The notes below the pieces were generated by a model. It saw nothing but the letters and a program-made list of their open reading frames with translations, was not told the DNA's origin and did no database searches. Below, one piece after another: positions 11,998 to 57,851 of a DNA stretch of 64,000 nucleotides. Location: positions 1-64,000 of IMG/VR virus record IMGVR_UViG_3300028920_000044, one strand, 5' to 3'. The DNA comes from a virus. The stretch's first letter is position 1; each line of letters begins with the position of its first letter. The position numbers and the translations under genes were made by a program.

Positions 11998-12011
11998 GAA
12001 AGTAAACTGGT

Positions 12012-12050: not shown

Positions 12051-12100
12051 ATGCCTGACAACATTGGGAGGCGAAGTCAATGATTATCTGGCACTACTCT

Positions 12101-30834: not shown

Positions 30835-30853
30835 TATTTAAAACCCTTTATGG

Positions 30854-40106: not shown

Positions 40107-40535
40107 TTAGATATAAGCAGAAAGGCCTTCACCAACTGGCTGACCTTGACTGTTACCTTCTGGCGGAGTTGCTATTGATGCAACTTGTTCTTCTTTGTCT
40201 TTTAAAACTCTAGGAGGAACAATACCTTGCTCCATTGATTTTGTATCCTCAGTAGCTTGTGCATTAAGCGCACTTTCAGCAGCCTTAAGTTGCTTTAATT
40301 CTGGATCTCTATTTCTTTCTTCTGCTTGCCTTGCACTCACCTTAGCAGCCCTCTTTTCTTGGTCCATTTTATCAGCAACTTCAGCTTCAATCCCTTCTTC
40401 CTCAGTTTGTTCTGGAGTTACTACTCGACCCATTGCCCTCGCATATATACGATCGCTTATATCTCCTGGAGGAACTTGTTCTTCTGGTGACATCTCTTGT
40501 GCTTGTTGTTCTAATATATATAATATTGAAATCAT
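40107..40535 (-). CDS. acidic putative internal head protein with MISILYILE leader
   Basis: AGGAG RBS; shared leader. Confidence 0.65.
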   Translation of the reverse strand: MISILYILEQQAQEMSPEEQVPPGDISDRIYARAMGRVVTPEQTEEEGIEAEVADKMDQEKRAAKVSARQAEERNRDPELKQLKAAESALNAQATEDTKSMEQGIVPPRVLKDKEEQVASIATPPEGNSQGQPVGEGLSAYI

Positions 40536-41179
40536 ATGTATTCTCCTAAATTCTCTAAGTTATCCAAATATCGTACTGATTGTTCTTTACTTGCTGTGAG
40601 TACGCCTTTCTTTACACCATACAATGATCTAGTTAGTGCGCTGGGATATGGGGATAACATAGTTCCTAATTTTTTAGCTGTCCCTAATTTATAATTCATA
40701 TACTTTCTTGTCCCCGACCCTACTACTGTTCCTGTTTTAGTTAAAAACTGTCTTCGACTCATCTTTGCATTATCTGCAATTTTATCGGCAGTCTTAATAG
40801 CAGGATCTAACTTCTTCTCAATATTGGCCGCTCTATCTCTTATACTCTGTAATCCACTAGATCTATTAACAAATTTTTGTCCTATCTTACTATCTAACGC
40901 CTTCTTAACACCACCAGCCATTTCATGAGAATGTTTAAAAGCGGCACCTTTCTCTCCAGCAGCCATAACGTTCTTAATAGCACCAGAACCTGTTATTTTA
41001 TCGGGTTTTCGGCCTTTAGCTCTTTCTTTTTGTAATGCTGATCCAACAGCGGCAGCCATTAATCCTTTACCTGCTGCTTTCCCAAAGTTTCTTCTACTAG
41101 GATCAAATGGTGGTGCTTTAAATGATGGCATTAATCCTTTAAGTTTGGATAATTTAATAGCTTCATCAATACTGAGCAT
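40532..41179 (-). CDS. basic protein with two twin-arginine (Tat-like) motifs
   Basis: PSRRNFGK and MSRRQFLT. Confidence 0.7.
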   Translation of the reverse strand: MLSIDEAIKLSKLKGLMPSFKAPPFDPSRRNFGKAAGKGLMAAAVGSALQKERAKGRKPDKITGSGAIKNVMAAGEKGAAFKHSHEMAGGVKKALDSKIGQKFVNRSSGLQSIRDRAANIEKKLDPAIKTADKIADNAKMSRRQFLTKTGTVVGSGTRKYMNYKLGTAKKLGTMLSPYPSALTRSLYGVKKGVLTASKEQSVRYLDNLENLGEYI

Positions 41180-41188
41180 AATAATCTC

Positions 41189-41395
41189 CTAATACCAACT
41201 AATCTTTTTGACAATCTTGCCAAACCCTGACATAATGTTCTGTTGACCTACATCTAAATCAAAACATTTAACATAAAAAAAGCCATCTCCCATTTCGACT
41301 TCATATTTGATATCGTATTCCTTCATCTTTTTTAGTATTGATACTATTGCTTCACTATTATTAATACTATACCGTTGGTTTATCTTTAGGTTCAT
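41189..41395 (-). CDS. small hypothetical protein
   Basis: Operon packing; resembles 41669..41860. Confidence 0.6.
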   Translation of the reverse strand: MNLKINQRYSINNSEAIVSILKKMKEYDIKYEVEMGDGFFYVKCFDLDVGQQNIMSGFGKIVKKISWY

Positions 41396-41672
41396 TCCTT
41401 CTCTTTCTTTTGATAACAGTAACTCCTAAATCTAATAATTTAGTTATAATCCAACCAAGTACTCCACCTATTGAACCATTAACAATTACATCACTTTTAG
41501 GTACTAATTTTAATTCTATACCTTTATCAATTATTATCTCTTCAATAGTTTTGTTTTTATTATCTTCTATAGGCGACACTGTTTTAAACTTTGGAGTGTA
41601 TGTTGTAGTCAATGTACCTATCATAATACCTACTAATATTACTGGCAAATAAATCCGAATAAATCGTTTCAT
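41367..41672 (-). CDS. two-TM membrane protein (holin-like topology)
   Basis: Two hydrophobic segments, basic C-terminal tail. Confidence 0.55.
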   Translation of the reverse strand: MKRFIRIYLPVILVGIMIGTLTTTYTPKFKTVSPIEDNKNKTIEEIIIDKGIELKLVPKSDVIVNGSIGGVLGWIITKLLDLGVTVIKRKRRNEPKDKPTV

Positions 41673-41860
41673 TCGTTTATTTCCTCAATCCATTCTATAT
41701 TCTCAAGTATAGATATTTCGCGCTTTAGTATATTCGTTACTGTAAAATATACAATACATTCATCATATTCAGTAATACAATATCCAATATTGTGTTTCTT
41801 AAGTTCCCTCAATATGTGAACTGCATTGCATCCTGTCTTAATTTTATAATATTTGTCCAT
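41669..41860 (-). CDS. small hypothetical protein
   Basis: Operon packing; resembles 41189..41395. Confidence 0.6.
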   Translation of the reverse strand: MDKYYKIKTGCNAVHILRELKKHNIGYCITEYDECIVYFTVTNILKREISILENIEWIEEINE

Positions 41861-41872
41861 AAATATTCTCTT

Positions 41873-42448
41873 TTAATATAATATTCTCTCATTCATCTGT
41901 TTTCTAGCAATCATAAGATTCATAAATTCTTTAACCTTTTTAATTGACGTATGCGCAGTTTTATGAAGTATCCCCATTCCGCCCGCTTGAATAAAATCAT
42001 CAATGTTTTGTTTCTCATCATCAATGAGTACAGCGTTAGATCTAGCGAATTTTGCTTTTAATCTTTTATCAGGAACAACGGACATATTAACTAAATATTG
42101 CGCTCCTAATTCTCGTTCAACCCACATCTCTTTACCTAATTTTCTTTTTCTTCCTGGTCCATGACTTACATTTCGACCAGCAGAGGTAAGAATGTAAGGA
42201 TCTTTATCTTTAATAAATGCCCATAATTCTTTTCCACCCTTTATCCAGGGCATATTGCTCCAAAATATAGAACCACCATGAGAGTCTATTAACTTCCACA
42301 TTTTATTTATTTCGCTATGTTTAAAATCTAGAGATCCTGTCCAACCAATATCTTGCATTGCTTTAACGAAATCTGTAAGTACTCCATCCATGTCACAATA
42401 GATACGGAGTCGTTCTTCTTCATCTATTAAGTACTGTAACGGAATCAT
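41873..42448 (-). CDS. HAD-superfamily 5'(3')-deoxyribonucleotidase (NT5C-like); start re-called at 42448
   Basis: IYCDMDGVLTDF, ILTS, K..W, VLIDD; GGAG 10 nt before ATG-ATT-CCG. Confidence 0.88.
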   Translation of the reverse strand: MIPLQYLIDEEERLRIYCDMDGVLTDFVKAMQDIGWTGSLDFKHSEINKMWKLIDSHGGSIFWSNMPWIKGGKELWAFIKDKDPYILTSAGRNVSHGPGRKRKLGKEMWVERELGAQYLVNMSVVPDKRLKAKFARSNAVLIDDEKQNIDDFIQAGGMGILHKTAHTSIKKVKEFMNLMIARKQMNERILY

Positions 42449-42449
42449 A

Positions 42450-43037
42450 TTATTTAATCTCCACAAATCGAACAGATCCTAAACTTGTTGTTGACGTATT
42501 CTTCTCCATCTTTATTAGTTCTTGCGAAGATCCCCTTCTAACAGGAACAATTATGTACCCATTCTTTGATAACTGTTTGAATAGAAGAGGTGGTACACTA
42601 TTTGTTAACGCAGAAACGATTATGACATCAAATGGAGCTTTCTCTTTCCATCCTTTTTTACCATCACCAAACTTACTCGATACATTCCTAATATTCGATT
42701 TATTAATCCGAACTTTCGCTTTAATAAGTAAATGTCTATTTATTTCAATAGTGTAAACATGTTTACATAGACTTGCTATAAGAGCAGTTTGCCATCCAGA
42801 CCCTGTGCCCACTTCTAATACTTTTTTATTCTTATCTAATTTCGCCGCTTTTAAGACTATTTTAATAAGAGAGGGTGCAGAAGTAGTTTGTTTATGCTGT
42901 ATCGGTAATGGATCATCTGTATTAGCTAAATGACGAATTTCTAAATCCAAGAAATTCTCTCTCGGAATTTTTCTCATAGCTGTTGTTATCTTATCCTCAA
43001 ATAATCTTAAAATAGGTATCATTTTCATATCTCTCAA
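42450..43037 (-). CDS. pcm: protein-L-isoaspartate O-methyltransferase (start may be 43028 or 43022)
   Basis: AM..IPRE.F, D.PLPI...QT.S.P, VLEVGTGSGWQTA, IE, GDG..GW...APFDVIIV, QL...G..IVPV, VRFV. Confidence 0.92.
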   Translation of the reverse strand: MRDMKMIPILRLFEDKITTAMRKIPRENFLDLEIRHLANTDDPLPIQHKQTTSAPSLIKIVLKAAKLDKNKKVLEVGTGSGWQTALIASLCKHVYTIEINRHLLIKAKVRINKSNIRNVSSKFGDGKKGWKEKAPFDVIIVSALTNSVPPLLFKQLSKNGYIIVPVRRGSSQELIKMEKNTSTTSLGSVRFVEIK

Positions 43038-43044
43038 GATTTCT

Positions 43045-43075
43045 CCCTTCCAAGAGAAACATTCTCCTGGAAGGG
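43045..43075 (-). terminator. hairpin after baseplate wedge gene
   Basis: CCCTTCCA...TGGAAGGG extended stem. Confidence 0.55.
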
Positions 43076-43087
43076 GCTTTTTCTTTT

Positions 43088-46006
43088 TTAAATAGTCATC
43101 TTAAAATCAATATCATCAACATCCCAAAACCAGAAGTGTGGAGTATATGTAACAATGCCCAATTTATCATCAGCTATATTTCTCAATCCTTCTTCATCAG
43201 GAATTGTTTCTAATCCACTTGGTATTTCTGTACCCATCGAATCAGTTAATATAACCGATACACTTTTAATCCATTCCTGATCTGTATGAATTAAATCAAC
43301 AACTTGACTATTATAGAATACGATTTCCGTTCCTGTATGCACTGTTTGTAGCCAATCCGCAATCATTAATATAAATAAATCTTTCTTCTCAGAAACGTTG
43401 ATTCTTTTATTAACAATCATTTCAGAATCGACAATGACAGTGATCTGAAGTTTAAGTGGGAGAACAATGTCAAATGTGCTATATTCTTGAACTGTGAAAT
43501 TCTCAAGAAAGTAAGAGTCTGCAGTTAGACTATCAAGAAACCTAAACTGTAGATTATCTGATATCATTCTTTTACCTTCAACATTATTATCAACCACAAA
43601 TTGTTTAATCTTATCTAAATAATATTTTGGATCATCCATATAGGTATCATATCCTATAAGAGGAATATTAATTATATAACGATCCGTGTAGTCTAAAACA
43701 ATTCCATCATACACATTATGATCATACAACAAAACATTAAGTTGGTCTTTGATATTATACATTTGATTAATACTATAAGTAGAACTTTCAAATGAATGAT
43801 CGGTACCTTTTCTTCCAAATAATTCAATATGAAATTCAGCCCAAAAAATTCCATCTTCATCTGTATAATCATACACAAATTCAGTGTTATTCAAATTAAC
43901 TAATGATTCTCTATATATACTTCTTTCGCTTATTGTTATTTCAAAATTATATTCAGAAATATCTTGGTGAGATTTCAATCTAATATAGCTTGTTCTATTT
44001 GAATAATCATATTCGATTAGAAAATATAAAACTGGTATATCGTAATACGCTAATCCGGTGTTTTTAGCCTCAGAAAAATACACAGAAAATGAATCATAAA
44101 AAAGATATCCATCATACCACCCCATAAAAGAATTATAATAATAAAAAAATGGACTTACCATTACTTCCCCACCGATCGTAAATTTTGGGAAGAATGACAT
44201 ATTATAATTAATTGGATAATTACAAAAAACGAATGCAGTTCCATCATCAATAATAGAGTTAGTATTTACTCGTGTAAAAGAATAATTTATTCCATTATAT
44301 TTATATATTATGTATTCGTTTGCATTATCAACGGCGTCCCATGTAATAGAAACTGAAGTAGGATCATATACTTGAATTGTACCTATGTAGTTATCTCCAG
44401 AATATGATCCTGATAAAGTTAGAGTATAAATACCTCCTGCTATATCTTCACTTAATATTTCTAAAGCATCAGCATAATTGCCACCAGTGGGGTAAATAAA
44501 ATCTCCAGGAGACACCGCATCCCAGGCAACTGAATCAGTGCAAGTAACTATATTAGAATCTGTTTCAAATGTATACTCTTCTGTTATTAAAACATCTATT
44601 CCTGTCAAATTAACAGCTATATCAACTTCTTCACCAACAGTAAATTGATCTGTTGGTACTATTTTATAACTTAAATTTTCTGCTTTGACAAATCCTCCAG
44701 TTATAGTAGATAATGCTATATTCTGAACTTCTGATAAATAATCAATTTTCATGAGAGAATGATTAGTTGTTGGAGAAACAAGCTGGTATTTATCTCGAAA
44801 CGATCGACACAAATAAAATGTATTACTTGACACAACGGACTTCTTAAATAAAAATCTAAAGTCATTTAAATACTTTTCAGCAATATTATAAAAATCTCTC
44901 TCACTAACTAACATATCATAACTCTGAATATGAGCAACAACATCATTTCTTAATAAATCACCACTTAAAGGATCTAACCCATCTTTTGAATATTGAAAAT
45001 TAATCTTCACAAACTTCTCAGCATTTTGAGCAGGAAGAGATTCTATTTTATTTGCTTGACTTGCATCATAATAATTAGTTATAACTAAGTAATTCTTTGG
45101 ACCTACAAATACTTCTTTTGCAAGATTACCACTACCTCCCATTGTCACATCTACTCTAACAGTTATTTCAGCTGATGGAATGTATGCTCCTCGTATACCT
45201 GATCCAAATTCAATAACAAACTTTCGAGAAGTCAATTTTCTTAAAAACACAGTCTTAGAAAAACTTTCTTCAAAATATTTCACATAATTAACATTATATT
45301 CTTCAAGAAGATTACTAGAATCATCCTTTCGTTTAACCCAAACACGAATATCACTAATGTGCCCTTCATCAATTTCAATTACATAAGGATAATATGTACC
45401 AAAACTATAATTAGGTAATGTCAGAAAAAATTCTTGAACCTTGAATTGTTGTACATCTTTAAATGGTGCAATAACTTCAGCAGTAGCAGATGGTAATTGT
45501 TGTACATTACCTTCATTCGAAGTTATAATTGTGCTATATCCACTTAACGATTGCACAAATTTATATTTAGCATTTGTTATAAAATTGTATCCTTCATTCT
45601 CAAAAACGATCGAAGAATCATCTCCTATAACTGCTTCTCTTCGTATAACACCATTAGGTAGCTTTGGTAATAATGCAAAATCAAATATTACACTACCAAA
45701 CGCGTTAGAAGGAGTACCAAATGTTGGTAAATATCCATATGTAGCAGAGTGAAAATATAGATTCTCTGTTTCTTGTGCTGTGGCTACAAATGCTTCTTTA
45801 AATAGAGAATCATAATATTGCTTTGCATCAAAATTTGTATGTCCAAGAAGATTTAATAAGAATCCAACAAAACCCAATTTATTAATCTGTAAATCATAGA
45901 CTTGTAATTCACTCTTTAGTAACGTTGAATAATATTCTATGAATTCTTGTGGGCTTTTAAAATTTGTTACAGATATATCCGCCATTTCAACACCCCGTTC
46001 AATCAA
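43088..46006 (-). CDS. baseplate wedge protein (T4 gp6/baseplate J-like)
   Basis: EAF..TAQ, GY.P, EFGSG.RG, GGSGN, LVSERDF motifs. Confidence 0.8.
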   Translation of the reverse strand: MIERGVEMADISVTNFKSPQEFIEYYSTLLKSELQVYDLQINKLGFVGFLLNLLGHTNFDAKQYYDSLFKEAFVATAQETENLYFHSATYGYLPTFGTPSNAFGSVIFDFALLPKLPNGVIRREAVIGDDSSIVFENEGYNFITNAKYKFVQSLSGYSTIITSNEGNVQQLPSATAEVIAPFKDVQQFKVQEFFLTLPNYSFGTYYPYVIEIDEGHISDIRVWVKRKDDSSNLLEEYNVNYVKYFEESFSKTVFLRKLTSRKFVIEFGSGIRGAYIPSAEITVRVDVTMGGSGNLAKEVFVGPKNYLVITNYYDASQANKIESLPAQNAEKFVKINFQYSKDGLDPLSGDLLRNDVVAHIQSYDMLVSERDFYNIAEKYLNDFRFLFKKSVVSSNTFYLCRSFRDKYQLVSPTTNHSLMKIDYLSEVQNIALSTITGGFVKAENLSYKIVPTDQFTVGEEVDIAVNLTGIDVLITEEYTFETDSNIVTCTDSVAWDAVSPGDFIYPTGGNYADALEILSEDIAGGIYTLTLSGSYSGDNYIGTIQVYDPTSVSITWDAVDNANEYIIYKYNGINYSFTRVNTNSIIDDGTAFVFCNYPINYNMSFFPKFTIGGEVMVSPFFYYYNSFMGWYDGYLFYDSFSVYFSEAKNTGLAYYDIPVLYFLIEYDYSNRTSYIRLKSHQDISEYNFEITISERSIYRESLVNLNNTEFVYDYTDEDGIFWAEFHIELFGRKGTDHSFESSTYSINQMYNIKDQLNVLLYDHNVYDGIVLDYTDRYIINIPLIGYDTYMDDPKYYLDKIKQFVVDNNVEGKRMISDNLQFRFLDSLTADSYFLENFTVQEYSTFDIVLPLKLQITVIVDSEMIVNKRINVSEKKDLFILMIADWLQTVHTGTEIVFYNSQVVDLIHTDQEWIKSVSVILTDSMGTEIPSGLETIPDEEGLRNIADDKLGIVTYTPHFWFWDVDDIDFKMTI

Positions 46007-46009
46007 GGT

Positions 46010-46879
46010 TTAAATTTTATTAAATTTAGGGAATACTAAAGTATTAAGTTCATCTAATACCCAACTCTTTGTACCCTCTGAAACTACATATCCACGATAT
46101 GCTGCACAAAAATAACTAAAAGGTAATGTAGTTAATTCGTTGCCTGTGCGTTGTCCTATCAACTCTTTTGATGGTAAAGCTTGAGGAAATAGACCAATAC
46201 ATTTACCTACATATGTTATGTCTTTTAAATTTGGTTTATATTTGACTATATATATAGAAGCTGCATAATCTATTCCACCATATATTCCTCCGCTATCTTG
46301 ATGAAATTTGGTAATGTCTTGATTTAAATAATGAGGATGTGGTCTTATTTTACCTTCAATTATATCCCAAATATAATGAATCCATGCTTGATGGAATTTA
46401 TATATTGATAGTTCAGAATCATCTATATATGTGACAGACACTTGCTCCGAGGTACTGAATTCAGTTGCAAAAGGAATTGCCCCACTTCGACTAGATACTC
46501 GCTCTGAATTGACCTGTTCTTGAGGTGGTGTAAAATCAACAGCAGCAAACGTAACAAATTTTGTAATTCTATTTAATTCTTCACCTATTGAACTGTTCCC
46601 TTTGTATGTATGTTCACCGTGTTCACCAAACACTCTTTTATTACTAAAATCTTGATCTCTAGTAAGCCCACTTAAAGGAGGAGGGATCATGAACATAAAC
46701 GTGTAACCGTTTATATCAGGATTGTATCTATGAAGCATTGTATCATAAAAAAATCGCATCAAGTCGCTATCTTCTTTAGATTCCCCAAATATAATATCTA
46801 TAACATTGACATTTGCTAATTGAGAATTACTATCTTTCGGTGGAACAACTGTTAGCGCCATAATATTCTCCATGACCAA
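46010..46879 (-). CDS. tail-tube-fold paralog (gp54/gp19-like)
   Basis: GYTFMF..PP, DFTPP, VSVTYID, W..YI, G.FP..LP; collinear with 12101..12898. Confidence 0.6.
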   Translation of the reverse strand: MVMENIMALTVVPPKDSNSQLANVNVIDIIFGESKEDSDLMRFFYDTMLHRYNPDINGYTFMFMIPPPLSGLTRDQDFSNKRVFGEHGEHTYKGNSSIGEELNRITKFVTFAAVDFTPPQEQVNSERVSSRSGAIPFATEFSTSEQVSVTYIDDSELSIYKFHQAWIHYIWDIIEGKIRPHPHYLNQDITKFHQDSGGIYGGIDYAASIYIVKYKPNLKDITYVGKCIGLFPQALPSKELIGQRTGNELTTLPFSYFCAAYRGYVVSEGTKSWVLDELNTLVFPKFNKI

Positions 46880-46912
46880 TAGGGCCTAATGCGATTACAC
46901 ATTAGGCCCTAT
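46879..46912 (-). terminator. perfect 13-bp hairpin
   Basis: ATAGGGCCTAATG/CATTAGGCCCTAT. Confidence 0.65.
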
Positions 46913-46920
46913 CAATTCTA

Positions 46921-48183
46921 TTAACTCCCGTATTGTCCACGGCATACAGTTTTGCTCATATTATAAATTAGACCATAAATCAATACATTTCGAATTTGAA
47001 TTCTTGTTACCTCACTATATCGATCATATACTTTAGTCAGGGCTTTCCCATCTGTATCTCTAAGATCATCATCAAAAATTTGTTTCAATAACATATTGCT
47101 AAGTTTCTGTATCTTTCGAGTATCCGGATTATTTTTACTCGAAATAATAACTTTCTTAACAATCGTTCTATAATTCGCTTTACAGATATCAATTTTATCA
47201 ACAACATTGGTCCGCGAAAGAATTACACTAATTAAATCATATAAGATATCATGATATTTATGATTATGAATAGATTGAAGTATTGCTTTAATAGTAACCT
47301 CTTTAACTTTAAATGACTGATTAAAACTTTTAATTAACGTACTAGGATAAGAGGGATTTGGATTCATTGTGATGTAATCGGTTACGTCATTTGTTATTTC
47401 ATCACGAATATGAACAGTAGAATATTGATCAAACCCTGGTTCATCATCACCCATACCAACGCTTGGGCTAGAAATAGACATGCCCATTTTATGTGCTTTC
47501 ATATAAAGAGGCAATAATCCACCTTGTGCTTCGTTTTTACCCGTTGTTATATTTCTTCTCGGGTTAAACATAAAGATCTGATTAATGCGACTATACATTT
47601 GTTCGAATAATCGTTTTAATTTAAAAGAATTTCTTTTAATCTCTGGTCCATATTTGAATATAAGTTTAGGAACATGATAATCATGAAGTAAGCTGATAGG
47701 ACTGTCATATTTAGATACACTATGCTTCTTAGTGATCATATGAGTTACAACATACTTCATGATTTTCTTGTCACAATATTTAATGTACCGTACCTTACGA
47801 CCATTCCAAACTTTCATCAAGCAGCACATCATTGCGTTTTTGTATATGTGTTCTTTCTTTCCCATCAAACCATAATATGTAAGTAATAATAAAATCTGAT
47901 AATATGGGTCACTATGCATAGCATTCTTCATAGCGCCCATACCCCAATCTTTTTTATATGCATTGTAAACATCAATTTGATCAATACCAATTATTTTGTA
48001 TAATTTTAATACGCCTGCCATTGGAAGCGTAAACTTGAAACAATACCCTTCATCAGATGACATAGATTGGGAGAATGCGGTACTCACAAACCTCGAAATC
48101 TCTTGATACACCTGGCGTTCTATTCGCGGATCAGCATGAAATATTTGCTGTAGTTCCTTATGAAGTTTCGTTATTTCTGACAC
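46921..48183 (-). CDS. hypothetical protein
   Basis: AGGAG RBS before GTG; 420 aa. Confidence 0.75.
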   Translation of the reverse strand: MSEITKLHKELQQIFHADPRIERQVYQEISRFVSTAFSQSMSSDEGYCFKFTLPMAGVLKLYKIIGIDQIDVYNAYKKDWGMGAMKNAMHSDPYYQILLLLTYYGLMGKKEHIYKNAMMCCLMKVWNGRKVRYIKYCDKKIMKYVVTHMITKKHSVSKYDSPISLLHDYHVPKLIFKYGPEIKRNSFKLKRLFEQMYSRINQIFMFNPRRNITTGKNEAQGGLLPLYMKAHKMGMSISSPSVGMGDDEPGFDQYSTVHIRDEITNDVTDYITMNPNPSYPSTLIKSFNQSFKVKEVTIKAILQSIHNHKYHDILYDLISVILSRTNVVDKIDICKANYRTIVKKVIISSKNNPDTRKIQKLSNMLLKQIFDDDLRDTDGKALTKVYDRYSEVTRIQIRNVLIYGLIYNMSKTVCRGQYGS

Positions 48184-48212
48184 TTTTCATGCTCCTATTA
48201 TGATGATAAAGA

Positions 48213-48935: not shown

Positions 48936-48960
48936 AATATTTCCTCCATAAATGAAAATG

Positions 48961-51225
48961 TTAAATTCTGCCTTCTAACTCATTTCTCGTCATATTCTCG
49001 ACATAGGTCTCAAATGTACGAATGTTAGATTTATTGATTTGTGTCATATACTGAAGTTTATAGTATACTTGCCCACGCTTAGAATCTATGACAATTAAAT
49101 TTGGCACATCTAATCTTTGGTTAATAAATTTGACTATTCCCTTGACATAATTGTCTGTAACATTTAGCCCCTCCTCTACACCTTTAGATAACAAATGGCG
49201 CCAAGACTTTGAAACAACTGCTGCATGTAACATCACAATCGTCTCAAGTGGTACTACTAATGTATAGTTTGGTAAATCCAAAGCATCATTAGCAACAGTT
49301 TCAATTTCTATATCAATGTAATCGACATACTGACACACAGACCCCATCACAGCTACATAATATAATGTTCTAATAAAACTTTTAATATAACCCTTTGTCT
49401 GATTAATAAATTCTTCAACTGCTTCTATTAATTTATCTGGATCATCATGGTCTAATATATTTCGTCTTAATATTGCAATATTATCAGGTACACCTTGGGG
49501 GTTATATCTAAATTCTTGATGATATGTAATAACTATATTTTCAACAGCTTGATCAATTACTCTTTCAACTTTATCAAATATTGGTTTAGGGTTATTAATA
49601 ATTTTTCCTAATTGATATGCTAAACTTTGATGCATACTATCAAATTCTTCTCCAATATCGGTAGAAACTCGAGTAAACATGCCAAAACTTTCTTTAGTAA
49701 TCATTGGATCACTAAGCATCACATTTTTTAAATCCTCTGTTCTTGATTCTACTTTTTGGATTGCTTTACCTAAAGTCTTTGTACATATTGACTTCATAAG
49801 TTTAGCTTTGTTTTCATCAACCCCGGCACCTCTAAAAGAGTTTTCAACAGCAGAGAATACTTCTCCAGTTATTTTCGCTATTTCCCCCATTAAGAACTTA
49901 TCAAGCGTTTCTTCTTTTAACTTTTGATAATCAATAATAGATTCATGAGGATGTATTGTCATCAATAATGATTTCGTATACATATTGATATTGTAACCTA
50001 AATACGCCAAAAAATTATGAAGAACTAGATCGCTTAGTTCTCCCGCTTTTGGAGATAATGTTTTAACTGTTGATTCTATTTGTCCTGGGTTACGAGTCAA
50101 TCCAAATTGTGATCGTAAAAGATTATCATTAAGCATAAACTTAAAGAAAAGCTCTGCCTCTTTTAGATTCCCTTGTACGACATTTAATATATCAAATTCC
50201 TTCACAGGTTTGAATGTATCTCGTGGCATATTAGTTGGTACAACTGTAGGTACACCCTCTTTTCCAGGCGAATAGAGTTCTTTTGAAGCTATTTGGTCTT
50301 GTCTAGATAATGGTAATCTTGATGGTATCCTAGGATCAATCCACGTTTTTCTCCACCGTTTTACGGTTTCATATGGTTTCCCTATGGCTTTCTCAAAACG
50401 ATTTGATATTCTTCTACCAAAAGATTCTAATCCTTGTGCTATTTTAGGATGATCTGGAGCCAACCAAGAAATTAATCTGTCATGAAGTGTGTTTCTATCT
50501 TGTTCAGCATCAAACTTCGACATATTCGCTAAAAGATTCCAAGCTTCTTTCTCATCAAGACGTTTAATAACATTAAATATGTACTTAATATTTGTTTCAC
50601 CTTGCGGCCCACCAATTGGTTTCTTTAAAGCAATCGCTGTGGTTAAGACGTATGCAAGAGTTAAAGAATCAATAGAGTATGCTTTAGTACCAACAATTAC
50701 AGGGACATCAATTAAATTTTCTAGCGTTATTAACTCAACAAAAGGATTCAATTTCTTTACCCTTGGTTCAGTTGCTAGATATCTTTTGATAATAGCTGTT
50801 TTCTCTCTAATCTTTTCCTGGAGTTTATATTCATCCATTCTTGGTATAGCAGAAGGTTCTTGCATCTGATAAGATTGATAACTTCCAGATCCGCCTTGTC
50901 CTAATGAAGATTGAGAGATTAAAGTTTGCACATCTGATGAATTTCCGTTTTCATCAGTTAAAGAAAAACTTTTCGAAGCACTCGCTACTATATTCAATGC
51001 ATTGCTTACGAATATCTCCTTCAACATAGAAACAGCCATAAAGTTTCTCATCGTCTGTTCAAACTTCTGTAATCGCTTATCAAATAACATTGGGTATATA
51101 AATGTTAACTTAAATTGTTGGTCTATATCCTCTACACTGATGTTCTTAGCTCCTACATCAAAGGTCTTTACCTTTCTCAGGTTACGAGTTGCGCTTGAAT
51201 AAAGCTGTCTTCCTGTTAAATTCAT
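48961..51225 (-). CDS. large hypothetical protein, probably virion
   Basis: GAGG RBS; 754 aa. Confidence 0.75.
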   Translation of the reverse strand: MNLTGRQLYSSATRNLRKVKTFDVGAKNISVEDIDQQFKLTFIYPMLFDKRLQKFEQTMRNFMAVSMLKEIFVSNALNIVASASKSFSLTDENGNSSDVQTLISQSSLGQGGSGSYQSYQMQEPSAIPRMDEYKLQEKIREKTAIIKRYLATEPRVKKLNPFVELITLENLIDVPVIVGTKAYSIDSLTLAYVLTTAIALKKPIGGPQGETNIKYIFNVIKRLDEKEAWNLLANMSKFDAEQDRNTLHDRLISWLAPDHPKIAQGLESFGRRISNRFEKAIGKPYETVKRWRKTWIDPRIPSRLPLSRQDQIASKELYSPGKEGVPTVVPTNMPRDTFKPVKEFDILNVVQGNLKEAELFFKFMLNDNLLRSQFGLTRNPGQIESTVKTLSPKAGELSDLVLHNFLAYLGYNINMYTKSLLMTIHPHESIIDYQKLKEETLDKFLMGEIAKITGEVFSAVENSFRGAGVDENKAKLMKSICTKTLGKAIQKVESRTEDLKNVMLSDPMITKESFGMFTRVSTDIGEEFDSMHQSLAYQLGKIINNPKPIFDKVERVIDQAVENIVITYHQEFRYNPQGVPDNIAILRRNILDHDDPDKLIEAVEEFINQTKGYIKSFIRTLYYVAVMGSVCQYVDYIDIEIETVANDALDLPNYTLVVPLETIVMLHAAVVSKSWRHLLSKGVEEGLNVTDNYVKGIVKFINQRLDVPNLIVIDSKRGQVYYKLQYMTQINKSNIRTFETYVENMTRNELEGRI

Positions 51226-51241
51226 ACTTTACCTCTCGTAG

Positions 51242-52141
51242 TTAACATCTGATATCGGCATATATTGTTGTTATCTCTTTCGAAAACTTAGGATAAGTTT
51301 TCTTATAGTCTAATCGCATTTTATCTATTATATCACACATACGCTTTGAATCTTTCGGATAGCTTGACAGCGAAAAGAATGATTTAATACTATCCCAAGT
51401 TTTTTGTATCCAAGTGTGTGGTCTTGCTTTTCCACCAGTTAATTTATTAAACTTAAAGAACACCTTCGCTAAATCATCACCATATCCATATTTGACTGCA
51501 TATTCATCAGCATTCAATTCCCCCATATGATCAGCAAATGTTAAACTTCTAGAGAGAGCAAAAAGAGACAGAACAACAGGCAATAATATTAATGATACTG
51601 CGGGAAAAACAATAACTCTTAAAAGGGTAAGAGCTCCAATCAATAGCCCCCCCTTCGCAACCTGGTTTACTAGAGTCGGAAGTAACATAGAAAAATTAGC
51701 AGTGTGCTGATATATATGACCAATCTCATGCAATAATATCGCTGTAAGTTCTCTAGGTGTAAACATGTCTAATGTCTTCGTTCCAAATATAACATATATT
51801 CCCTTAATATATCTTGGAGATTCTTCAGCCTTAAACTTCTCTGTTTTTAGCTTATTCTCTCCATCTTTCTTAAAAACCTTCGGTAATGTTTGATTGTATT
51901 TTATAAATATACAAGCGTCATGCACATTTTCTTTGACTACAAAGTATACTGATTTTACTCCTGTAAAACTCTTTATATTTCTAACAAGGTCTACTATTTG
52001 TTGTTTATCCTTAGTATTTTTTCTAATACTATCAAAGTTCTTATCGATATTCTTTAACACAGGGGATCTTACTTTAGCAGCTTCAAACATTATATATTCA
52101 AAATTTCTATTGATATCTTCAATGATCAAATCAACATTCAT
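51242..52141 (-). CDS. zincin metallopeptidase (M48-like) with hydrophobic hairpin
   Basis: ELTAILLHEIGH, downstream E..AD.YA...GYG..LA, TM segments. Confidence 0.85.
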   Translation of the reverse strand: MNVDLIIEDINRNFEYIMFEAAKVRSPVLKNIDKNFDSIRKNTKDKQQIVDLVRNIKSFTGVKSVYFVVKENVHDACIFIKYNQTLPKVFKKDGENKLKTEKFKAEESPRYIKGIYVIFGTKTLDMFTPRELTAILLHEIGHIYQHTANFSMLLPTLVNQVAKGGLLIGALTLLRVIVFPAVSLILLPVVLSLFALSRSLTFADHMGELNADEYAVKYGYGDDLAKVFFKFNKLTGGKARPHTWIQKTWDSIKSFFSLSSYPKDSKRMCDIIDKMRLDYKKTYPKFSKEITTIYADIRC

Positions 52142-52160
52142 TGATATCTCCTATATTCGA

Positions 52161-52281
52161 TCCTGGCCCCATACCGGGTGGAGAGGTCGGATAAACCCTG
52201 ACGCCCAAGATGGCAAAACACAAAACCCGCAAATTAAAAAGGGTAATGTTAAGAAAGCGTCATACCGATACGAGACCAGGG
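52161..52281 (-). ncRNA. candidate ~120-nt structured ncRNA
   Basis: 16-bp closing stem with 4 G-U pairs, inner 8-bp stem, further 4-bp stems; GC-rich in an AT-rich genome. Confidence 0.6.
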
Positions 52282-52283
52282 AA

Positions 52284-53249
52284 CTATTTAATGTCACATA
52301 TCTTATAATAGTGACAAAAAAAGCATTTCTTTCGATTCACAAACTCATTATCACCAGGTGGTAAAGTATTGCTATCTAGAAACCCATTTATTTCTTTTAT
52401 TTTACGCCGAATAAAATCGTAATAAGGTTCGGCATCAAAAGTATTCGTATCTAACACCATTGAAGTTATGAAATAAAATGGATTTCTTTTTGAATTTAAT
52501 TGTTTCTTAATAGAATCTACAATTTTAAGTGCCATAGAGAAATCATCAATATCACTTGCAGTGATATCATGTGCGAGATAAATAAACTGTAACGTATCTA
52601 TATTATAATAGTCTAATGCTGGTTTATTTGATCTCGTTTTAATACTTTCATCTTTTGCTTCTGTAAGAAAATTCTCTAATACATACTTATAAGTCATTAC
52701 TTGATAAAAGTCTGCAATTCTAGGTTTTTGATCTCTGATAATCTTTTGATAATCTTTATATGTACAACTTTTAATCTCTGCTAGGACATTAAATCCCTTC
52801 AAATTATCTAATCTTCCACTAAATCGGATCGAAGGTATTTTTACAGATACTTCTGTTTCTGTAAATTGATCAGTTACTCCTTGAATGAAATCATGACATG
52901 CACTTCCAAGTGTCGCTCGAAAAGATAGGGGTAACCACTTGTCCCCAAATGATTTAATAGGTGTTTTAGAAAGTTTATAAATAATTTGTCTGATACAATT
53001 ATCTGCTACATCATATGCATTAATATTCGCGGCAACTTCGGCATAAACTCGATTCTTATTTTCTGCCTTTTCAGCTACTTCCCTTGAAAACACAGATACA
53101 TCAAATGGTTTAGCTCGTTCACTAACTACAGGAACAGATTCTTCCTGTATAGAATCCTGTGTTTTAGATGCCTGAGATGCCGTGATTTTTCTTTCGCCTT
53201 CCTTGCCATTAATTAAATTTACTACGCTATTAAATTCACTCAATTGCAC
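52284..53249 (-). CDS. Cas4-like PD-(D/E)XK exonuclease with Fe-S cysteines
   Basis: N-terminal C.RQ..Y, G...H, SGRLD, EIKS, Q...Y, C-terminal CFFC.....C. Confidence 0.85.
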   Translation of the reverse strand: MQLSEFNSVVNLINGKEGERKITASQASKTQDSIQEESVPVVSERAKPFDVSVFSREVAEKAENKNRVYAEVAANINAYDVADNCIRQIIYKLSKTPIKSFGDKWLPLSFRATLGSACHDFIQGVTDQFTETEVSVKIPSIRFSGRLDNLKGFNVLAEIKSCTYKDYQKIIRDQKPRIADFYQVMTYKYVLENFLTEAKDESIKTRSNKPALDYYNIDTLQFIYLAHDITASDIDDFSMALKIVDSIKKQLNSKRNPFYFITSMVLDTNTFDAEPYYDFIRRKIKEINGFLDSNTLPPGDNEFVNRKKCFFCHYYKICDIK

Positions 53250-53299
53250 GCCTCCAATGTTATATCTTCGTCGTTAGTATTAATATTACTTTTAATACT

Positions 53300-53321
53300 A
53301 TTTCTATATAAAACTAGAAGA
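53300..53321 (-). promoter_or_regulatory. phage promoter/operator motif
   Basis: Minus strand TCTTC-TAGTTT-TATATAGAAAT. Confidence 0.7.
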
Positions 53322-53323
53322 CA

Positions 53324-53363
53324 TAAATTTTCAGGGAGGTGACGAACCCTCCCCAAAAATTTA
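53324..53363 (-). terminator. hairpin terminator
   Basis: TAAATTTT..GGGAGG/CCTCCC..AAAATTTA. Confidence 0.6.
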
Positions 53364-53384
53364 GAGTGCTACCTTCACACAGTC

Positions 53385-54056
53385 TTACTCTTCTTTCTTT
53401 TTCTTTCTACCGCGAAGTAACTTAGCAGCACCTATTGCTCCAGCGCCTAGACCTGCAGCGATAGCAACTTTACCACCATGCTCAGATCCAAATTTCTTAA
53501 TGGCACTACCGGCATCATCAAGGGCTTCTTTAGTTTTATGAATACCTACTGCTGTTCGTGCTCCTGTTTTCATGCTCGTTGCTGGATTAAATCCTACAGC
53601 ATTCATACCTCTGGCAACTTTTACACCAGGTTCAATACTACCCAAATTACTAAGATCTCTCTTTGCAACCCTACCAATCAGAGGCACATTCTTTAATTTT
53701 TTAGCAACGGATTGATATGTATCAATACTATCATCCGTACTTTTGAGGCTTTTACCCAATTCTTCTCTAGACGTGTTCTTAAACTTTTTATCAATCTTAG
53801 CATACAGCTCTTTTCTCTTCTCAGCATCAGGAAAATCACTTTTTTCCTGAAGAGCAATGATCACACCTTCAGAATATTCTTTCGCTATACCAGAAATCTC
53901 TAAGACGAGATCTGTTGTTTTGTGTTCTTTAGCTTCATCGATCCAATTCGCTTTTTGTTCTGGAGAAGCGAGGATCCAAGCTAGAACATCTTCTCGTATT
54001 TCAAGACCCTTTAATGGATCTTTTTGGTTTGATGCAACAAATTGTTGATAGCCCAT
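53385..54056 (-). CDS. putative internal head protein (paralog A)
   Basis: MGYQQFV N-terminus; shares N- and C-termini with 54088..54516. Confidence 0.7.
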   Translation of the reverse strand: MGYQQFVASNQKDPLKGLEIREDVLAWILASPEQKANWIDEAKEHKTTDLVLEISGIAKEYSEGVIIALQEKSDFPDAEKRKELYAKIDKKFKNTSREELGKSLKSTDDSIDTYQSVAKKLKNVPLIGRVAKRDLSNLGSIEPGVKVARGMNAVGFNPATSMKTGARTAVGIHKTKEALDDAGSAIKKFGSEHGGKVAIAAGLGAGAIGAAKLLRGRKKKKEE

Positions 54057-54087
54057 AATTTTAATCTCCTCATATAATTTAATTTAA

Positions 54088-54516
54088 TTATTCAGCAGCG
54101 CCAGAAGGAGAACTAGCCGGAACACCAGCAACCTGTTCTCTTCGTAATTTTTTAGCCAGATTCAATGCACCCAATCCTTGTGCAATTCCGGCGGCGGCGG
54201 CAATTTTGCCTTTGTCAGACATCTGAGGATCATCATCACTCATATTGGTGGCAGCTTTAGGTTCACCAGCTGTGGTAGTAGGATCAATTTCTTTACCTGC
54301 TTCATCACCAGATCCACCAGCTTCGGTATTCGGAACATTTGCAGATTCAGAGATTTCAAGAACGTATTTACTTGCCTCATCATCTCCCTTTACTTCTTGA
54401 ATAACAGCTGCTTTCTCTTTTGGAGACATATTCTTCCAGGCTTCAACATCTTCTTCAAACGTCTTGACAGTCTGTCCCTTGCCTTCTAAATTGTCTATAA
54501 AATCTTGATAAGACAT
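54088..54516 (-). CDS. putative internal head protein (paralog B)
   Basis: MSYQDFI N-terminus; shared termini. Confidence 0.7.
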   Translation of the reverse strand: MSYQDFIDNLEGKGQTVKTFEEDVEAWKNMSPKEKAAVIQEVKGDDEASKYVLEISESANVPNTEAGGSGDEAGKEIDPTTTAGEPKAATNMSDDDPQMSDKGKIAAAAGIAQGLGALNLAKKLRREQVAGVPASSPSGAAE

Positions 54517-54550
54517 ACTTTTTCTCCTTTGATATTCGTTGAATTTAGGT

Positions 54551-54883
54551 TTATGATTTCATTGCGGCCTTACGAGCGGCCTGTTTTCCTCTCATACCAT
54601 ATTTGCGCATAACCTTCGTCTTAAACTTCTTCCATAATTTCTTGTACTTAATCATCTTTTTATAGTCGGTGTCATTCTTATCTTTGGCTAATCTTGCCGC
54701 CATTGATCCGCCTAATCTAGATAATTTCTCTTGTCTACCAACTCTTAGCATAGACATTTTTAATACTTCATTAATTGTATCATCATCCATAAAATCAATA
54801 CATTCAATTAACATATTTTTCAATTCTTCATCCGGTATATCTAATTCTAACAATTCTTGTTCGGACAATTCTGAATAATCCAT
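54551..54883 (-). CDS. small protein: acidic propeptide plus very basic C-terminal domain
   Basis: LLE/LIE/INE sites then Lys/Arg-rich region. Confidence 0.7.
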   Translation of the reverse strand: MDYSELSEQELLELDIPDEELKNMLIECIDFMDDDTINEVLKMSMLRVGRQEKLSRLGGSMAARLAKDKNDTDYKKMIKYKKLWKKFKTKVMRKYGMRGKQAARKAAMKS

Positions 54884-54896
54884 TTAACTCATCCTC

Positions 54897-55775
54897 CTAC
54901 TTATATTGTCTCATATTCCTTGACTTAGTGATTTCATTTCGGGATTCAATCATTTTACTCTTTAACTCCTGTAATGCGTTTCTTTTCTTTACCTCATCTT
55001 TTGCAAAGACATAATCTAATAAATCATTAAACGAATCAAATCCAGCTTTTAGTTCTTTAAAATAATCATTACAAGCAGCAGATAATTGAAGTCCAGCGAC
55101 GCTCTTTAACATATCATCAGGCTTAAGATTTTGAATTTGATCGAATCCTCCCGTATTTTTAAGACAAACAAAATAACTTTTAGAGAGAAGAGCTAATGCC
55201 TCTATCATGTATTTAACATAACATTTTTTAAGGCAATCCCCTTGCTTAAATGATTCGGCACTAGATACAACAGGTCGTTTACCACCAGTTGAGAAATAAG
55301 ACCACATGCTTAAATCTTTTTCGTCAATATCACAAGCCTTATAACATTTTTTAGAGTTTTGTTGAATAATAGCATATCTGAATTTCCAATACCGCCCATG
55401 TTTAGAAAGAAACTTACCTATAGACTCTGAAACTTCACCTATCTTTTGACCCGCAGAGAAAATTGCTCTATTAATCCTATCACCGTATATAAAGAAAAAC
55501 AAAGCAGAGATTCCACCAATGGCCATAAGCGTCAAAGGATCTACTTCTTGCAACACCTCTTCATTATATTGAAAATCGAAGTATGTTTTAAATATCTGTT
55601 GCTGTTGAAGCAAGTTTGTATCGTATAGATGATCATAAAGATCTATATCAGTTTCCCTTAGTTCTTTAACTAATTCGTAGGTTTCATCAAAAAGTTGATC
55701 TTTTGTAATCTTGTCATGAAGGCGATTTTGGTCGATATATGCTTCGGCGATGGTTTTAAAAAATCGTACGTCCAT
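54897..55775 (-). CDS. putative head protein with TM segment and Cys-rich helical region
   Basis: Acidic N-terminus ending VLQE, hydrophobic stretch, C.K.C motifs. Confidence 0.65.
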   Translation of the reverse strand: MDVRFFKTIAEAYIDQNRLHDKITKDQLFDETYELVKELRETDIDLYDHLYDTNLLQQQQIFKTYFDFQYNEEVLQEVDPLTLMAIGGISALFFFIYGDRINRAIFSAGQKIGEVSESIGKFLSKHGRYWKFRYAIIQQNSKKCYKACDIDEKDLSMWSYFSTGGKRPVVSSAESFKQGDCLKKCYVKYMIEALALLSKSYFVCLKNTGGFDQIQNLKPDDMLKSVAGLQLSAACNDYFKELKAGFDSFNDLLDYVFAKDEVKKRNALQELKSKMIESRNEITKSRNMRQYK

Positions 55776-55801
55776 TTATAAGTTCTCCCTTTTAATTAAC
55801 T

Positions 55802-55867
55802 AAAAAGAGGGCGGGGTAATACGGAGGGTCAGATTCTACGTTTGGTTAAAACAACTACCCCACCCTC
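55802..55867 (-). terminator. terminator with unusually large loop after recA
   Basis: GAGGGTGGGGTA/TACCCCGCCCTC followed by TTTTT. Confidence 0.65.
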
Positions 55868-55872
55868 AATAC

Positions 55873-57327
55873 TTATGTAGTCTGTTGTTCATCAAAAACA
55901 GGCTTATATCCCTCTTCAGTTGGTTGATTCTGATTTAGGAAAAAATCCTCACTAACTTGAGGAACTTCTTCTCCTTGTATCGCTGGAGCAGTAGGTTCTT
56001 CTGGGTTAAAATTTTGTAACGGATTTTCATTTAAAGTGTCAGTAACTACATTATGAATAGTTTCATCAATTACACATTGTTCCTTTGCATCATCATACTC
56101 GCCCACTTCGCATCTAAAAATACCTTGAGTTATACGAGTATATACACTTACTTGTACTGCGAAATCAAACCACTGTTTAAATTCTGGATCTGTATCATAC
56201 TTCTCTTTTGCATTCTTTCTGTAAAATGAATTACTTTTCCATTTTTCAACTCCATTTTCATCAGATACTACAAGTTTTACTCTAGGTCCATCTTTCTTTA
56301 TCATAAATAAAGAAGCAGGAGGAGCATTCTTATAAATCTTCTTTTCACTAGGGATTATCTCCATAAGAAAATAGAATTCAGACCAGAACTTACTTATGCC
56401 TGTCTTTTTATCGAACACACAGGTAACGGCATGTTGACTTGGTGCTAACTTATTTTTCTCAGTATACACATCCATAAACCAACCATCAATACCTATTCCG
56501 TCAGCAGGTGTAATTAACTTCTTTTTACTAAGAAAAAGCCATTGTTGAGTCTTGTGTTGCAAAGCATAGATATTAGTAGCGGACTTGAAATCTTTAAATA
56601 CACCAACAGACTTCTCAGATTGAGCATATGGCCCTTCAATCTTAAGATTCGCACGAATTTGATCAATACAAACAAATGTTACTCGATTGAATTTAATTTG
56701 GGGTCCATACTTATCTAAAAGAAAACTGACCTGTCGTGCTTTATTACCTATGATTGAATTAGGACTTTCTGCTTCTAACGCTTTGGGACCAGGTGTTGAT
56801 GCAATACTATCCCAAATAAATGCAACATAAAACTCTTTCTCAAGCTTCTCTTCAAACACTTTCTTAATTGCAATTAATCGATCAATTAATTCAAATATCC
56901 CATCAACATTTACAATGATAGGTTCATATTTAAATCGATTTTCATCTAATCCAAATATTTCAATTCTACTTTGTCTGAACTCGCTATTTTTATTATTTCC
57001 TGATCCTTCTACATCTAGATAAACAACAACTGAGTTCGGATAAATCTTCTGGAATACAGAACTGAATTGAAACGCTAAAGTAGACTTCCCTGTCTCAGGT
57101 GTACTACTAAAGAGAATTGGATCTGATGAAACAATACCTCCACCTAATAAGGCATCAAGATGTTGAATACCAAAGGGAGTAACTATTGGATCTGGCGCCA
57201 TTAAATGACCATATTCACTTAATATAATCTTATCAAATGCCTCTCCTAACTTTTCAGTTAGTCCTTCTTCCGCATTCTCTAAACTATCCAGATCCACTTT
57301 TTCTACTGATGTTTTTTTCCTCGCCAT
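55873..57327 (-). CDS. recA: RecA/UvsX-like recombinase
   Basis: G...LDALLGGG, Walker A STPETGKST, YLD.E, Walker B IWDSIA, IDQIR, KNK..P. Confidence 0.9.
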   Translation of the reverse strand: MARKKTSVEKVDLDSLENAEEGLTEKLGEAFDKIILSEYGHLMAPDPIVTPFGIQHLDALLGGGIVSSDPILFSSTPETGKSTLAFQFSSVFQKIYPNSVVVYLDVEGSGNNKNSEFRQSRIEIFGLDENRFKYEPIIVNVDGIFELIDRLIAIKKVFEEKLEKEFYVAFIWDSIASTPGPKALEAESPNSIIGNKARQVSFLLDKYGPQIKFNRVTFVCIDQIRANLKIEGPYAQSEKSVGVFKDFKSATNIYALQHKTQQWLFLSKKKLITPADGIGIDGWFMDVYTEKNKLAPSQHAVTCVFDKKTGISKFWSEFYFLMEIIPSEKKIYKNAPPASLFMIKKDGPRVKLVVSDENGVEKWKSNSFYRKNAKEKYDTDPEFKQWFDFAVQVSVYTRITQGIFRCEVGEYDDAKEQCVIDETIHNVVTDTLNENPLQNFNPEEPTAPAIQGEEVPQVSEDFFLNQNQPTEEGYKPVFDEQQTT

Positions 57328-57348
57328 ATAGTTTCGCCTCCAGACTAA

Positions 57349-57582
57349 TTACTTCTTTATTTTTTTTCTAATGACAACAGGTTCTTCTTCGATATCTATA
57401 GTCTTGTTATTTTTAGAATCTTTTAATTTCTCTTTTTTAATAATAATTTCTTTCTCCGGTGTAGTTTTCTTTGCAACAGTTATATCAAGATCATTTAATT
57501 CGGGAGGATAAGATTTCTTCCTAACCCGTCTTATAACTATTGACTCTGACTCTTTTAGTATATTACTCAAAGGAATCATCAA
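57349..57582 (-). CDS. small Lys-rich protein with MIPLSNILKE leader
   Basis: GAGG RBS; shared leader. Confidence 0.6.
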   Translation of the reverse strand: MMIPLSNILKESESIVIRRVRKKSYPPELNDLDITVAKKTTPEKEIIIKKEKLKDSKNNKTIDIEEEPVVIRKKIKK

Positions 57583-57599
57583 TATATCCTCGTTTAAAA

Positions 57600-57851
57600 T
57601 TAGTATGCTCCCTGCGATCTTTCAACAGCAGTTGGGTTCTTTCTTCTTCTAAGGTCCCGGATTTGCATAATCTCTGCAGCTTTCTGTTTCTGTTCTGCAG
57701 CTTTCTGCGCTGCCAACATAACACCAGGTGGACCCATTCCTACTCTATACTGTCCTGTAGGATAACCCTTTCCTCCAATCTGTTTCGCTGTTCCCGTCAT
57801 AAACGGTTCATAATGGCTCTGTCTTTCAAATAAATGTGATATAGCAATCAT
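57600..57851 (-). CDS. small protein with MIAISHLFE leader
   Basis: ATGA overlap; shared leader. Confidence 0.6.
   Translation of the reverse strand: MIAISHLFERQSHYEPFMTGTAKQIGGKGYPTGQYRVGMGPPGVMLAAQKAAEQKQKAAEIMQIRDLRRRKNPTAVERSQGAY

Follow-up and report, generated by a model that had tools for sequence, protein, structure and literature searches.

In the viral record IMGVR_UViG_3300028920_000044, proteins that are otherwise unrelated begin with nearly the same nine residues, described by a short consensus, M-I-x-I-S-x-L-F-E, or by a broader one, M-I-[SPTA]-[IVL]-S-x-[LI]-F-[ED]. This single viral record measures 109,194 bp, and the window considered here is its bases 1-64000 (64,000 nucleotides). 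CheckV estimates the completeness of the record at 41%. Because a 306-kb contig carries a protein-L-isoaspartate O-methyltransferase (PIMT) identical to that of the record, the latter is a fragment of a jumbo phage. The available data suggest that the shared leader is a capsid-targeting and processing signal of the T4 type, which would be removed by the Peptidase S77 prohead protease encoded in the same genome. We give this reading a probability of about one half; docking, cleavage, packaging and ejection are the steps that we infer.

A leader conserved at the peptide level

The sequence-only reading had pointed to five minus-strand genes of the window, and their starts were confirmed: MISILYILE at 40535, MIPLQYLIDE at 42448, MIPILRLFE at 43022, MIPLSNILKE at 57579 and MIAISHLFE at 57851. 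In each case, the start codon either overlaps the upstream stop or is accompanied by a Shine-Dalgarno-like sequence. As a complete set, the five genes were an undercount: a scan of the whole record gave 17 clear leaders and about five weaker ones. The 12 further clear starts (65100, 85166, 88148, 89533, 89997, 90345, 91001, 94566, 95323, 95672, 96079 and 96327) begin with M-I-[SPTA]-[IV]-x-x-L-F-[ED] or a close variant. Further cases are a 34-codon open reading frame (ORF) at 90446 and weaker starts at 76057, 81227, 99503 and 66134. Most tagged genes therefore lie outside the window, at 65-96 kb, and the former placing of the set in a late block is only loosely right, as the genes at 57579 and 57851 adjoin a UvsX-like recombinase and the majority are found in a block of small ORFs at 85-96 kb. 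The 34-codon ORF (90343-90446, outside the window) has a perfect leader, MISISWLFEA, and its TGA overlaps the start codon of the tagged gene that follows; this ORF could represent either cargo of minimal size or a decayed copy.

A position matrix was trained solely on 21 leaders of a relative, G001, and then applied to this genome. Fourteen gene starts scored above every internal methionine (1,011 methionine positions scored), so that the motif is more common at gene starts than expected by chance. With this matrix, the starts at 57851 (score 18.0), 43022 and 40535 are strong, 57579 is moderate (5.2) and 42448 is weak when taken alone. An all-against-all pairwise test of N-termini revealed no shared N-terminus in a control phage of similar base composition, G004. 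The gene at 40532-41179 was not counted as tagged, since its product starts with MLSIDEAIKL and has a matrix score of 0.9; it occupies the site of a tagged 220-residue gene of a relative, and the two proteins have no similarity.

Within the leader codons, first and second positions have a high information content, and third positions have almost none. Serine 5 is encoded by TCA, TCT, TCG and AGT, that is by both the TCN and the AGY families, and position 3 is always a small residue, coded NCN. The free third positions and the use of two serine codon families indicate that selection acts on the peptide rather than on the DNA. Thus, the idea of a portable tag on unrelated proteins, PIMT and a nucleotidase included, holds at the peptide level.

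Tagged proteins of this genome

PIMT (42450-43022, minus strand; 190 residues, isoelectric point (pI) 10.2, leader MIPILRLFE) is the most informative case. It matches Pfam PCMT with an E-value of 1.8e-47, residues 9-188 aligning with profile positions 18-204 of 210, and contains the glycine-rich S-adenosylmethionine-binding motif V-L-E-V-G-T-G-S-G-W. In seven of seven phage homologues, 51-89% identical, the leader is kept and runs straight into the conserved helix. Cellular homologues are untagged and have 20-35 extra N-terminal residues ahead of the V-L-x-A-M-R-K-V-P-R helix. The alignment of homologues therefore bears out that the leader stands in place of the usual N-terminal segment and joins the first conserved helix directly. 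That the tagged enzymes are host-derived, as had been proposed, stands only in so far as the closest untagged PIMT homologues are cellular. More distant phage PIMTs (P0012-P0014, 46-48% identity) start with M-I-P-[LV] and lack the L-F-E part; to judge from these N-termini, the tag may have been truncated or lost in that lineage.

The adjacent tagged gene (41873-42448, minus strand) encodes a 5'-3' deoxyribonucleotidase of the HAD type, 191 residues long, in which a diverged leader, MIPLQYLIDE, is followed by a short acidic linker. The assignment comes from PHROG 2643 (E 7e-27, residues 12-175), and the nucleophile motif DxDxV/T is present as D-M-D-G-V at residues 19-23; no Pfam match was obtained for this protein. 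Its orthologues have canonical leaders, MISISQLLEQ in the relative L004 (42% identity) and MISISKLFEE in G004. Likewise, the gene at 40107-40535 (minus strand; 142 residues, acidic, pI 4.5, no known family), the leader of which is encoded at 40509-40535, has an L004 orthologue (62% identity) starting with MIPISYLFEQ. The two remaining tagged genes of the window, both on the minus strand and without a family, encode small basic proteins: a lysine-rich one of 76 residues and pI 9.7 (57349-57579) and one of 83 residues and pI 10.3 (57600-57851), the start of which overlaps the stop of the upstream gene.

Outside the window, three tagged products could be related to known families. The protein encoded at 89533-89997 is predicted to be a Tad6-like inhibitor of type I Thoeris (Pfam PF25188; 53 bits for a cut-off of 27, E 5e-14), a prediction drawn from a match limited to profile positions 52-145 of 145. 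At 95669-96079 lies the gene for a SUKH/SMI1-KNR4 immunity-type protein (E 2e-15; leader MITIKHLFGK), and at 90450-91001 that for a transglutaminase-like protein (weak Pfam match; Atlas features 0.96-0.97). An Atlas search with the 157-residue protein of 64627-65100 gave nothing.

Once the leader is removed, the tagged proteins share a charge bias: pI exceeds 9 in 15 of the 17, and the median is 10.0 versus 6.7 for the other proteins of this genome (p 2e-5; size-matched p 4e-4). The same bias is found in G001 (median 9.4 versus 6.6, p 7e-5), the cargo of which is unrelated to that of this genome, and in the contig G003 (p 0.017). Basic cargo is expected of proteins that share a capsid with DNA, and is no proof that they do.

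Head module and cleavage motif

The genome encodes a 260-residue prohead protease of the T4 gp21 family (Peptidase S77) at 23088-23870 on the minus strand. The match to Pfam PF03420 is at the cut-off (27.2 bits versus 27, E 3e-6), and a family profile built from 27 sequences matches the T4 gp21 structure 5JBL with an E-value of 1.4e-10. The catalytic His and Ser are conserved: among 27 homologues, H90 and S156 never vary, H190 hardly does and E19 is conserved in at least 90%; the N-terminus contains conserved [FILM]-x-E and I-L-x-E motifs. The presence of a gp21-like protease, proposed earlier, is thereby upheld, and the tag ends in the cleavage motif of this family. Indeed, T4 gp21 cuts after L/I-x-E (PMC9026906), and L7-F8-E9 of the leader therefore fits the T4 protease rule.

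Conservation of the leader bears on hydrophobic residues at positions 2, 4, 7 and 8 and on Glu 9. In this genome, 12 leaders of 17 have [LI]-[FLI]-[ED] at positions 7-9, and four have an acidic residue at position 10 after hydrophobic-x. Leaders that lack Glu 9 mostly present the hydrophobic-x-acidic motif one place later (F-N-D, F-V-D, F-I-D, L-K-E, I-D-E).

Leader-like N-termini also occur within the head module itself. The major capsid protein (21497-23050, minus strand; 517 residues, gp23/HK97 fold according to AlphaFold/Foldseek, with a helical, propeptide-like N-terminal region) has L-F-E at residues 4-6, in the context M-x-x-L-F-E-N-Y-E; F5 is conserved in at least 90% of 30 homologues and E6 is invariant. 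A second motif, L-[STQ]-E, stands at residues 66-68 (L66 invariant, E68 in at least 90% of the same homologues), directly ahead of the best-conserved block of the protein, A-N-V-P...G-W-T-V-L-S-F-P. L66-x-E68 is likely the propeptide boundary, a site deduced from conservation alone since structural alignments to mature capsids begin at model residue 107-110, with the exception of T4 gp24, from residue 68. The capsid-protein family counts 128 matches at an E-value of 1e-20 or better. The AlphaFold model has a mean confidence (pLDDT) of 74.6. In Foldseek it matches the capsid of the Staphylococcus jumbo phage S6 (E 9e-15); the closest structural matches are S6, phiKZ, P1 and T4 (gp23), and encapsulins are also among the matches.

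A small protein encoded between portal and protease (23833-24174, minus strand), in the position of the T4 core proteins gp67/gp68, has an N-terminus comprising T-I-L-E-Q-Q, and its G001 orthologue starts with the leader-like MLLVEVLFEQ. The portal protein (24171-26201, minus strand) is 46% identical to its G001 orthologue and matches Portal_T4 of Pfam (E 3.5e-6), a match that assigns the head module to the T4 lineage. Between the protease and capsid genes, no scaffold gene (gp22) was found. A complex prediction with protease residues 36-215 (27-row alignment) and the first 40 residues of PIMT (8-row alignment) gave a score of 0.00, which weighs neither way.

Spread of the tag and turnover of its cargo

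In the closest relative, L004, the terminase of which is 76% identical to that of this genome, five tagged genes lie between the same two conserved genes. The leader is retained by the L004 orthologues of the nucleotidase, of the 40107-40535 product and of the 64627-65100 product (40% identity); PIMT is absent. In L004, the frame of the terminase large subunit (9947-12122, plus strand) is split into two ORFs about 330 bp apart, and about 16 query residues remain unmatched; an intron, an insertion or a faulty assembly could account for the split.

When IMG/VR was scanned with a back-translated pattern and then at the peptide level, several further contigs proved to carry the tag at gene starts. 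Four leader-bearing contigs (G001, G002, G003 and G005) were fetched in full, together with the control G004. G001 (285,572 bp, 95% complete) has about 22 tagged genes, G005 at least 12, G002 about nine and G003 about six, versus one in the control. G001 shares with this genome about 48 syntenic core genes at 25-57% identity (protease 49%, capsid protein 52%), and none of its 22 tagged proteins has a BLAST match to any protein of this genome at an E-value of 1e-5. After removal of the leader, 74 tagged ORFs from six genomes or fragments fall into 53 sequence families, of which 38 are singletons; four of the 74 were counted twice, as the fragment L021 overlaps L004. It follows from the lack of counterparts for the G001 cargo and from this number of families that the cargo is replaced while the tag is conserved. 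Products of tagged G001 genes include an HD hydrolase, a LigD-type 3'-phosphoesterase, DUF5661 and DUF5662.

Tagged genes are inserted at differing sites between conserved core genes. Pooled over orthologue pairs, identity is 54% for the leader and 54% for the remainder of the protein, the leader drifting within its pattern. In G005, two unrelated genes 560 bp apart, at 23068 and 23628, have leaders identical at 27 of 27 nucleotides, and the leaders of their G001 orthologues differ. Such identity suggests that leader exchange or gene conversion within a genome occurs occasionally. The sole tagged gene of G004 (30769-31308) encodes the nucleotidase homologue mentioned above, and the head module of that phage is different (a 205-residue protease, a separate scaffold and a 560-residue capsid protein). 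This suggests that tag and nucleotidase were transferred together.

A capsid-targeting signal as the favored reading

Under the reading that we favor, the hydrophobic residues at positions 2, 4, 7 and 8 would dock the newly made protein to the core of the assembling prohead. The T4-type S77 protease would then cut after the Glu of L-F-E or, in the variants F-V-D, F-I-D, L-K-E and I-D-E, after the acidic residue that follows one position later. Once mature, the proteins, most of them basic, would remain with the DNA and be ejected with it into the next host. The cargo forms a fast-changing accessory set of enzymes and proteins of counter-defence type (Tad6-like, SUKH). That the tag alone might suffice to load a foreign protein is supported only indirectly, by its natural occurrence in more than 50 families. 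More tentatively, and with less confidence than in the signal itself, it can be proposed that a marine clade of uncultured jumbo phages preloads its capsids by means of a cleavable nine-residue tag mimicking the N-terminal L-F-E of the capsid protein. About 20 exchangeable proteins per genome, drawn from more than 50 families and including repair and nucleotide enzymes along with counter-defence factors (for example a Thoeris inhibitor), might then be delivered by a system far larger than that of T4.

It should, however, be noted that several observations weigh against a role in head loading. The tagged nucleotidase of G004, a phage with another head module, shows that the tag can exist outside this head system. 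One leader in 17, that of the SUKH protein, lacks an acidic residue at both positions 9 and 10. L/I-x-E is short and easily met by chance, and the specificity of the protease is assumed from T4. Most tagged genes are located in the small-ORF block, which has an early or accessory look. The cargo of G002 has only a weak charge bias (p 0.09) and that of G005 has none (p 0.95). Finally, a megablast of the region against cultured phages returned nothing, leaving the clade with no cultured relative; a tblastn search with the capsid protein recovered only jumbo phages of Staphylococcus and Bacillus, the best at 21-23% identity over 60-65% of the protein. Cultured phages are therefore too distant for a virion proteome to be borrowed from them.

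Alternative readings

The tag might instead be an address for another phage process: a degron for a phage or host protease, a recruitment signal for a chaperone or modifying enzyme, or a signal for delivery to a membrane or replication site. Such a role would suit the many tagged genes found among early-looking small ORFs, and also the G/A-rich hydrophobic tails, resembling membrane anchors, with which several tagged or neighbouring proteins end. A candidate protease is available as well, since a 299-residue protein with hydrophobic segments and an H-E-I-G-H zinc-metallopeptidase motif is encoded at 51242-52141 on the minus strand. This peptidase has, however, no G001 homologue at an E-value of 1e-5. 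Moreover, the leader-like N-termini of the capsid protein, the protease and the small core protein would be left unexplained, as would the basic character of the cargo, and we regard an address of this kind as rather unlikely. A radical-SAM recognition tag is unsupported: the record contains no such gene, and the only one of G001 lies about 12 kb from the nearest tagged gene.

A second possibility is that the leader serves expression, either because its first nine codons are AT-rich and unstructured or because the nascent peptide is favourable, ATGA being fixed by coupling of start and stop. The leader codons are indeed AT-rich, and ATGA overlaps with an upstream stop are found at 40535, 57851, 89533, 95672 and 96079. 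Many tagged genes, however, do not overlap the upstream gene, and the highly expressed structural genes do not use the leader. Conservation is seen at the level of residues, with the freedom of third positions and the mixed serine codons described above, and reaches the acidic residue at position 9 or 10. An expression device does not predict basic cargo either, and appears improbable.

It may also be asked whether the conserved 5' sequence is a recombination joint, allowing accessory cassettes to be swapped between phages while the peptide itself has no role. The replacement of cargo sets between relatives at differing sites between core genes, the 27-nucleotide identity in G005 and the presence of a tagged nucleotidase in an unrelated phage, G004, are all compatible with such a joint. 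Nevertheless, leaders within this genome differ at most third positions, which makes DNA identity too low for homologous exchange, and the amino-acid pattern is kept across genomes with core proteins merely 25-57% identical. A functional peptide module would lead one to expect exchange of leaders just as much. A mere joint is the least probable of the readings to which we give weight. As for the main cause of the pattern, a promoter, a downstream box or another DNA or RNA element is ruled out by peptide-level conservation, and simple paralogy is rejected because most tagged proteins have no mutual similarity once the leader is removed.

Comparison with known systems

The capsid-targeting sequence (CTS) of T4 is formed by the first 10 residues of IPIII; targeting requires residues 4 and 7, and processing requires residues 8 and 10 (PMC9026906). 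The internal proteins of T4 have a strongly basic character and undergo a single cut, beside MKTYQEFIAE (PMC8442874), and those of T-even phages include defence-related ones (PMC3012670). Like the CTS, the tag described here is about 10 residues long, is exclusively N-terminal, is carried by unrelated proteins that are mostly basic in the two largest genomes, this one and G001, has hydrophobic residues at positions 4, 7 and 8 and ends with hydrophobic-x-Glu. The genome encodes a gp21-family protease together with a T4-like portal and capsid protein and, as in T4, the cargo, hypervariable from one relative to the next, comprises counter-defence proteins among others (PMC9026906, PMC3012670, PMC8442874).

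There are nevertheless clear differences. MISISxLFE has no sequence identity to MKTYQEFIAE beyond the hydrophobic positions 4, 7 and 8 and the terminal Glu, which occupies position 9 instead of 10 in T4. By sequence comparison, the tag is an analogue of the T4 CTS and not a homologous sequence. About 20 genes per genome are tagged, versus a handful in T4 (roughly ten times more), and the cargo includes recognisable enzymes (PIMT, nucleotidase, HD hydrolase, phosphoesterase). Unlike in T4, the tagged genes are scattered genome-wide, and the search between the protease and capsid genes gave no gp22 scaffold gene.

In phiKZ, 201phi2-1 and SPN3US, many head or ejection proteins are processed after Glu (S/A/G-x-E or A-x-E) by a distant gp21 relative, and the propeptides of these large phages are thought to direct incorporation (PMC9026906). 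These propeptides, however, are long and have no single shared short tag, and their cleavage motif has a small residue at position P3, whereas the nine-residue tag of this clade is uniform and, like the T4 motif, has Leu or Ile there. For phage P1, the Dar anti-restriction proteins (DarA, DarB, Hdf and others) are reported to be counter-defence proteins that are loaded during head morphogenesis and delivered with the DNA (PMC12810830). The carriage of counter-defence proteins in the capsid is what these share with the reading proposed here. Dar loading involves ordered protein-protein dependencies and longer N-terminal regions, and is not known to depend on a common short cleavable tag. Encapsulins offer another parallel, since a short portable peptide sends unrelated enzymes inside an HK97-fold shell; their cargo-loading peptides, however, attach to the shell protein itself, usually lie at the C-terminus and are not cut off by a protease. 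In literature searches on this motif and on capsid targeting in jumbo phages, no description of the present tag was found.

Possible implications

Should the tag serve as a signal for head loading, a simple rule at the sequence level would predict which proteins are carried by the virions of uncultured huge phages and act in the first seconds of infection. Dozens of small proteins of no known role would be marked as candidate injected counter-defence factors, and a second natural tag, after the T4 CTS, would be available for packing foreign proteins into phage heads. Recruitment of accessory genes would be simple, nine added residues being sufficient for PIMT, the nucleotidase or a Thoeris inhibitor. 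Should head loading prove wrong, a clade-conserved peptide tag on 5-15% of phage genes would still constitute an undescribed sorting or recognition system.

Neighbouring genes and motifs

Two adjacent small proteins encoded on the minus strand (53385-54056 and 54088-54516) start with M-[GS]-Y-Q-[QD]-F-[VI], which is near the Y-Q-E-F-I of the T4 CTS. Both end with a G/A-rich hydrophobic stretch and then a basic tail (A-A-G-L-G-A...A-K-K-L-R-R), and adjacent gene pairs of G001 and G005 have the same C-terminal tail. The pair may represent a second class of tag or tail-anchored membrane proteins.

Next to the terminase gene, a protein of 1961 residues (32332-38217, minus strand) has a C-terminal domain resembling metallo-endopeptidases and endolysins (residues ~1700-1850); it may act as a cell-wall hydrolase carried by the virion or as an ejection protein. 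Intergenic regions of this genome (29058-29124, 53250-53384, 59653-59776 and others) and of G001 repeatedly contain a promoter-like motif, TATATAGAAAT. In G001, the motif stands directly upstream of two tagged genes, ahead of 51128 and 87942.

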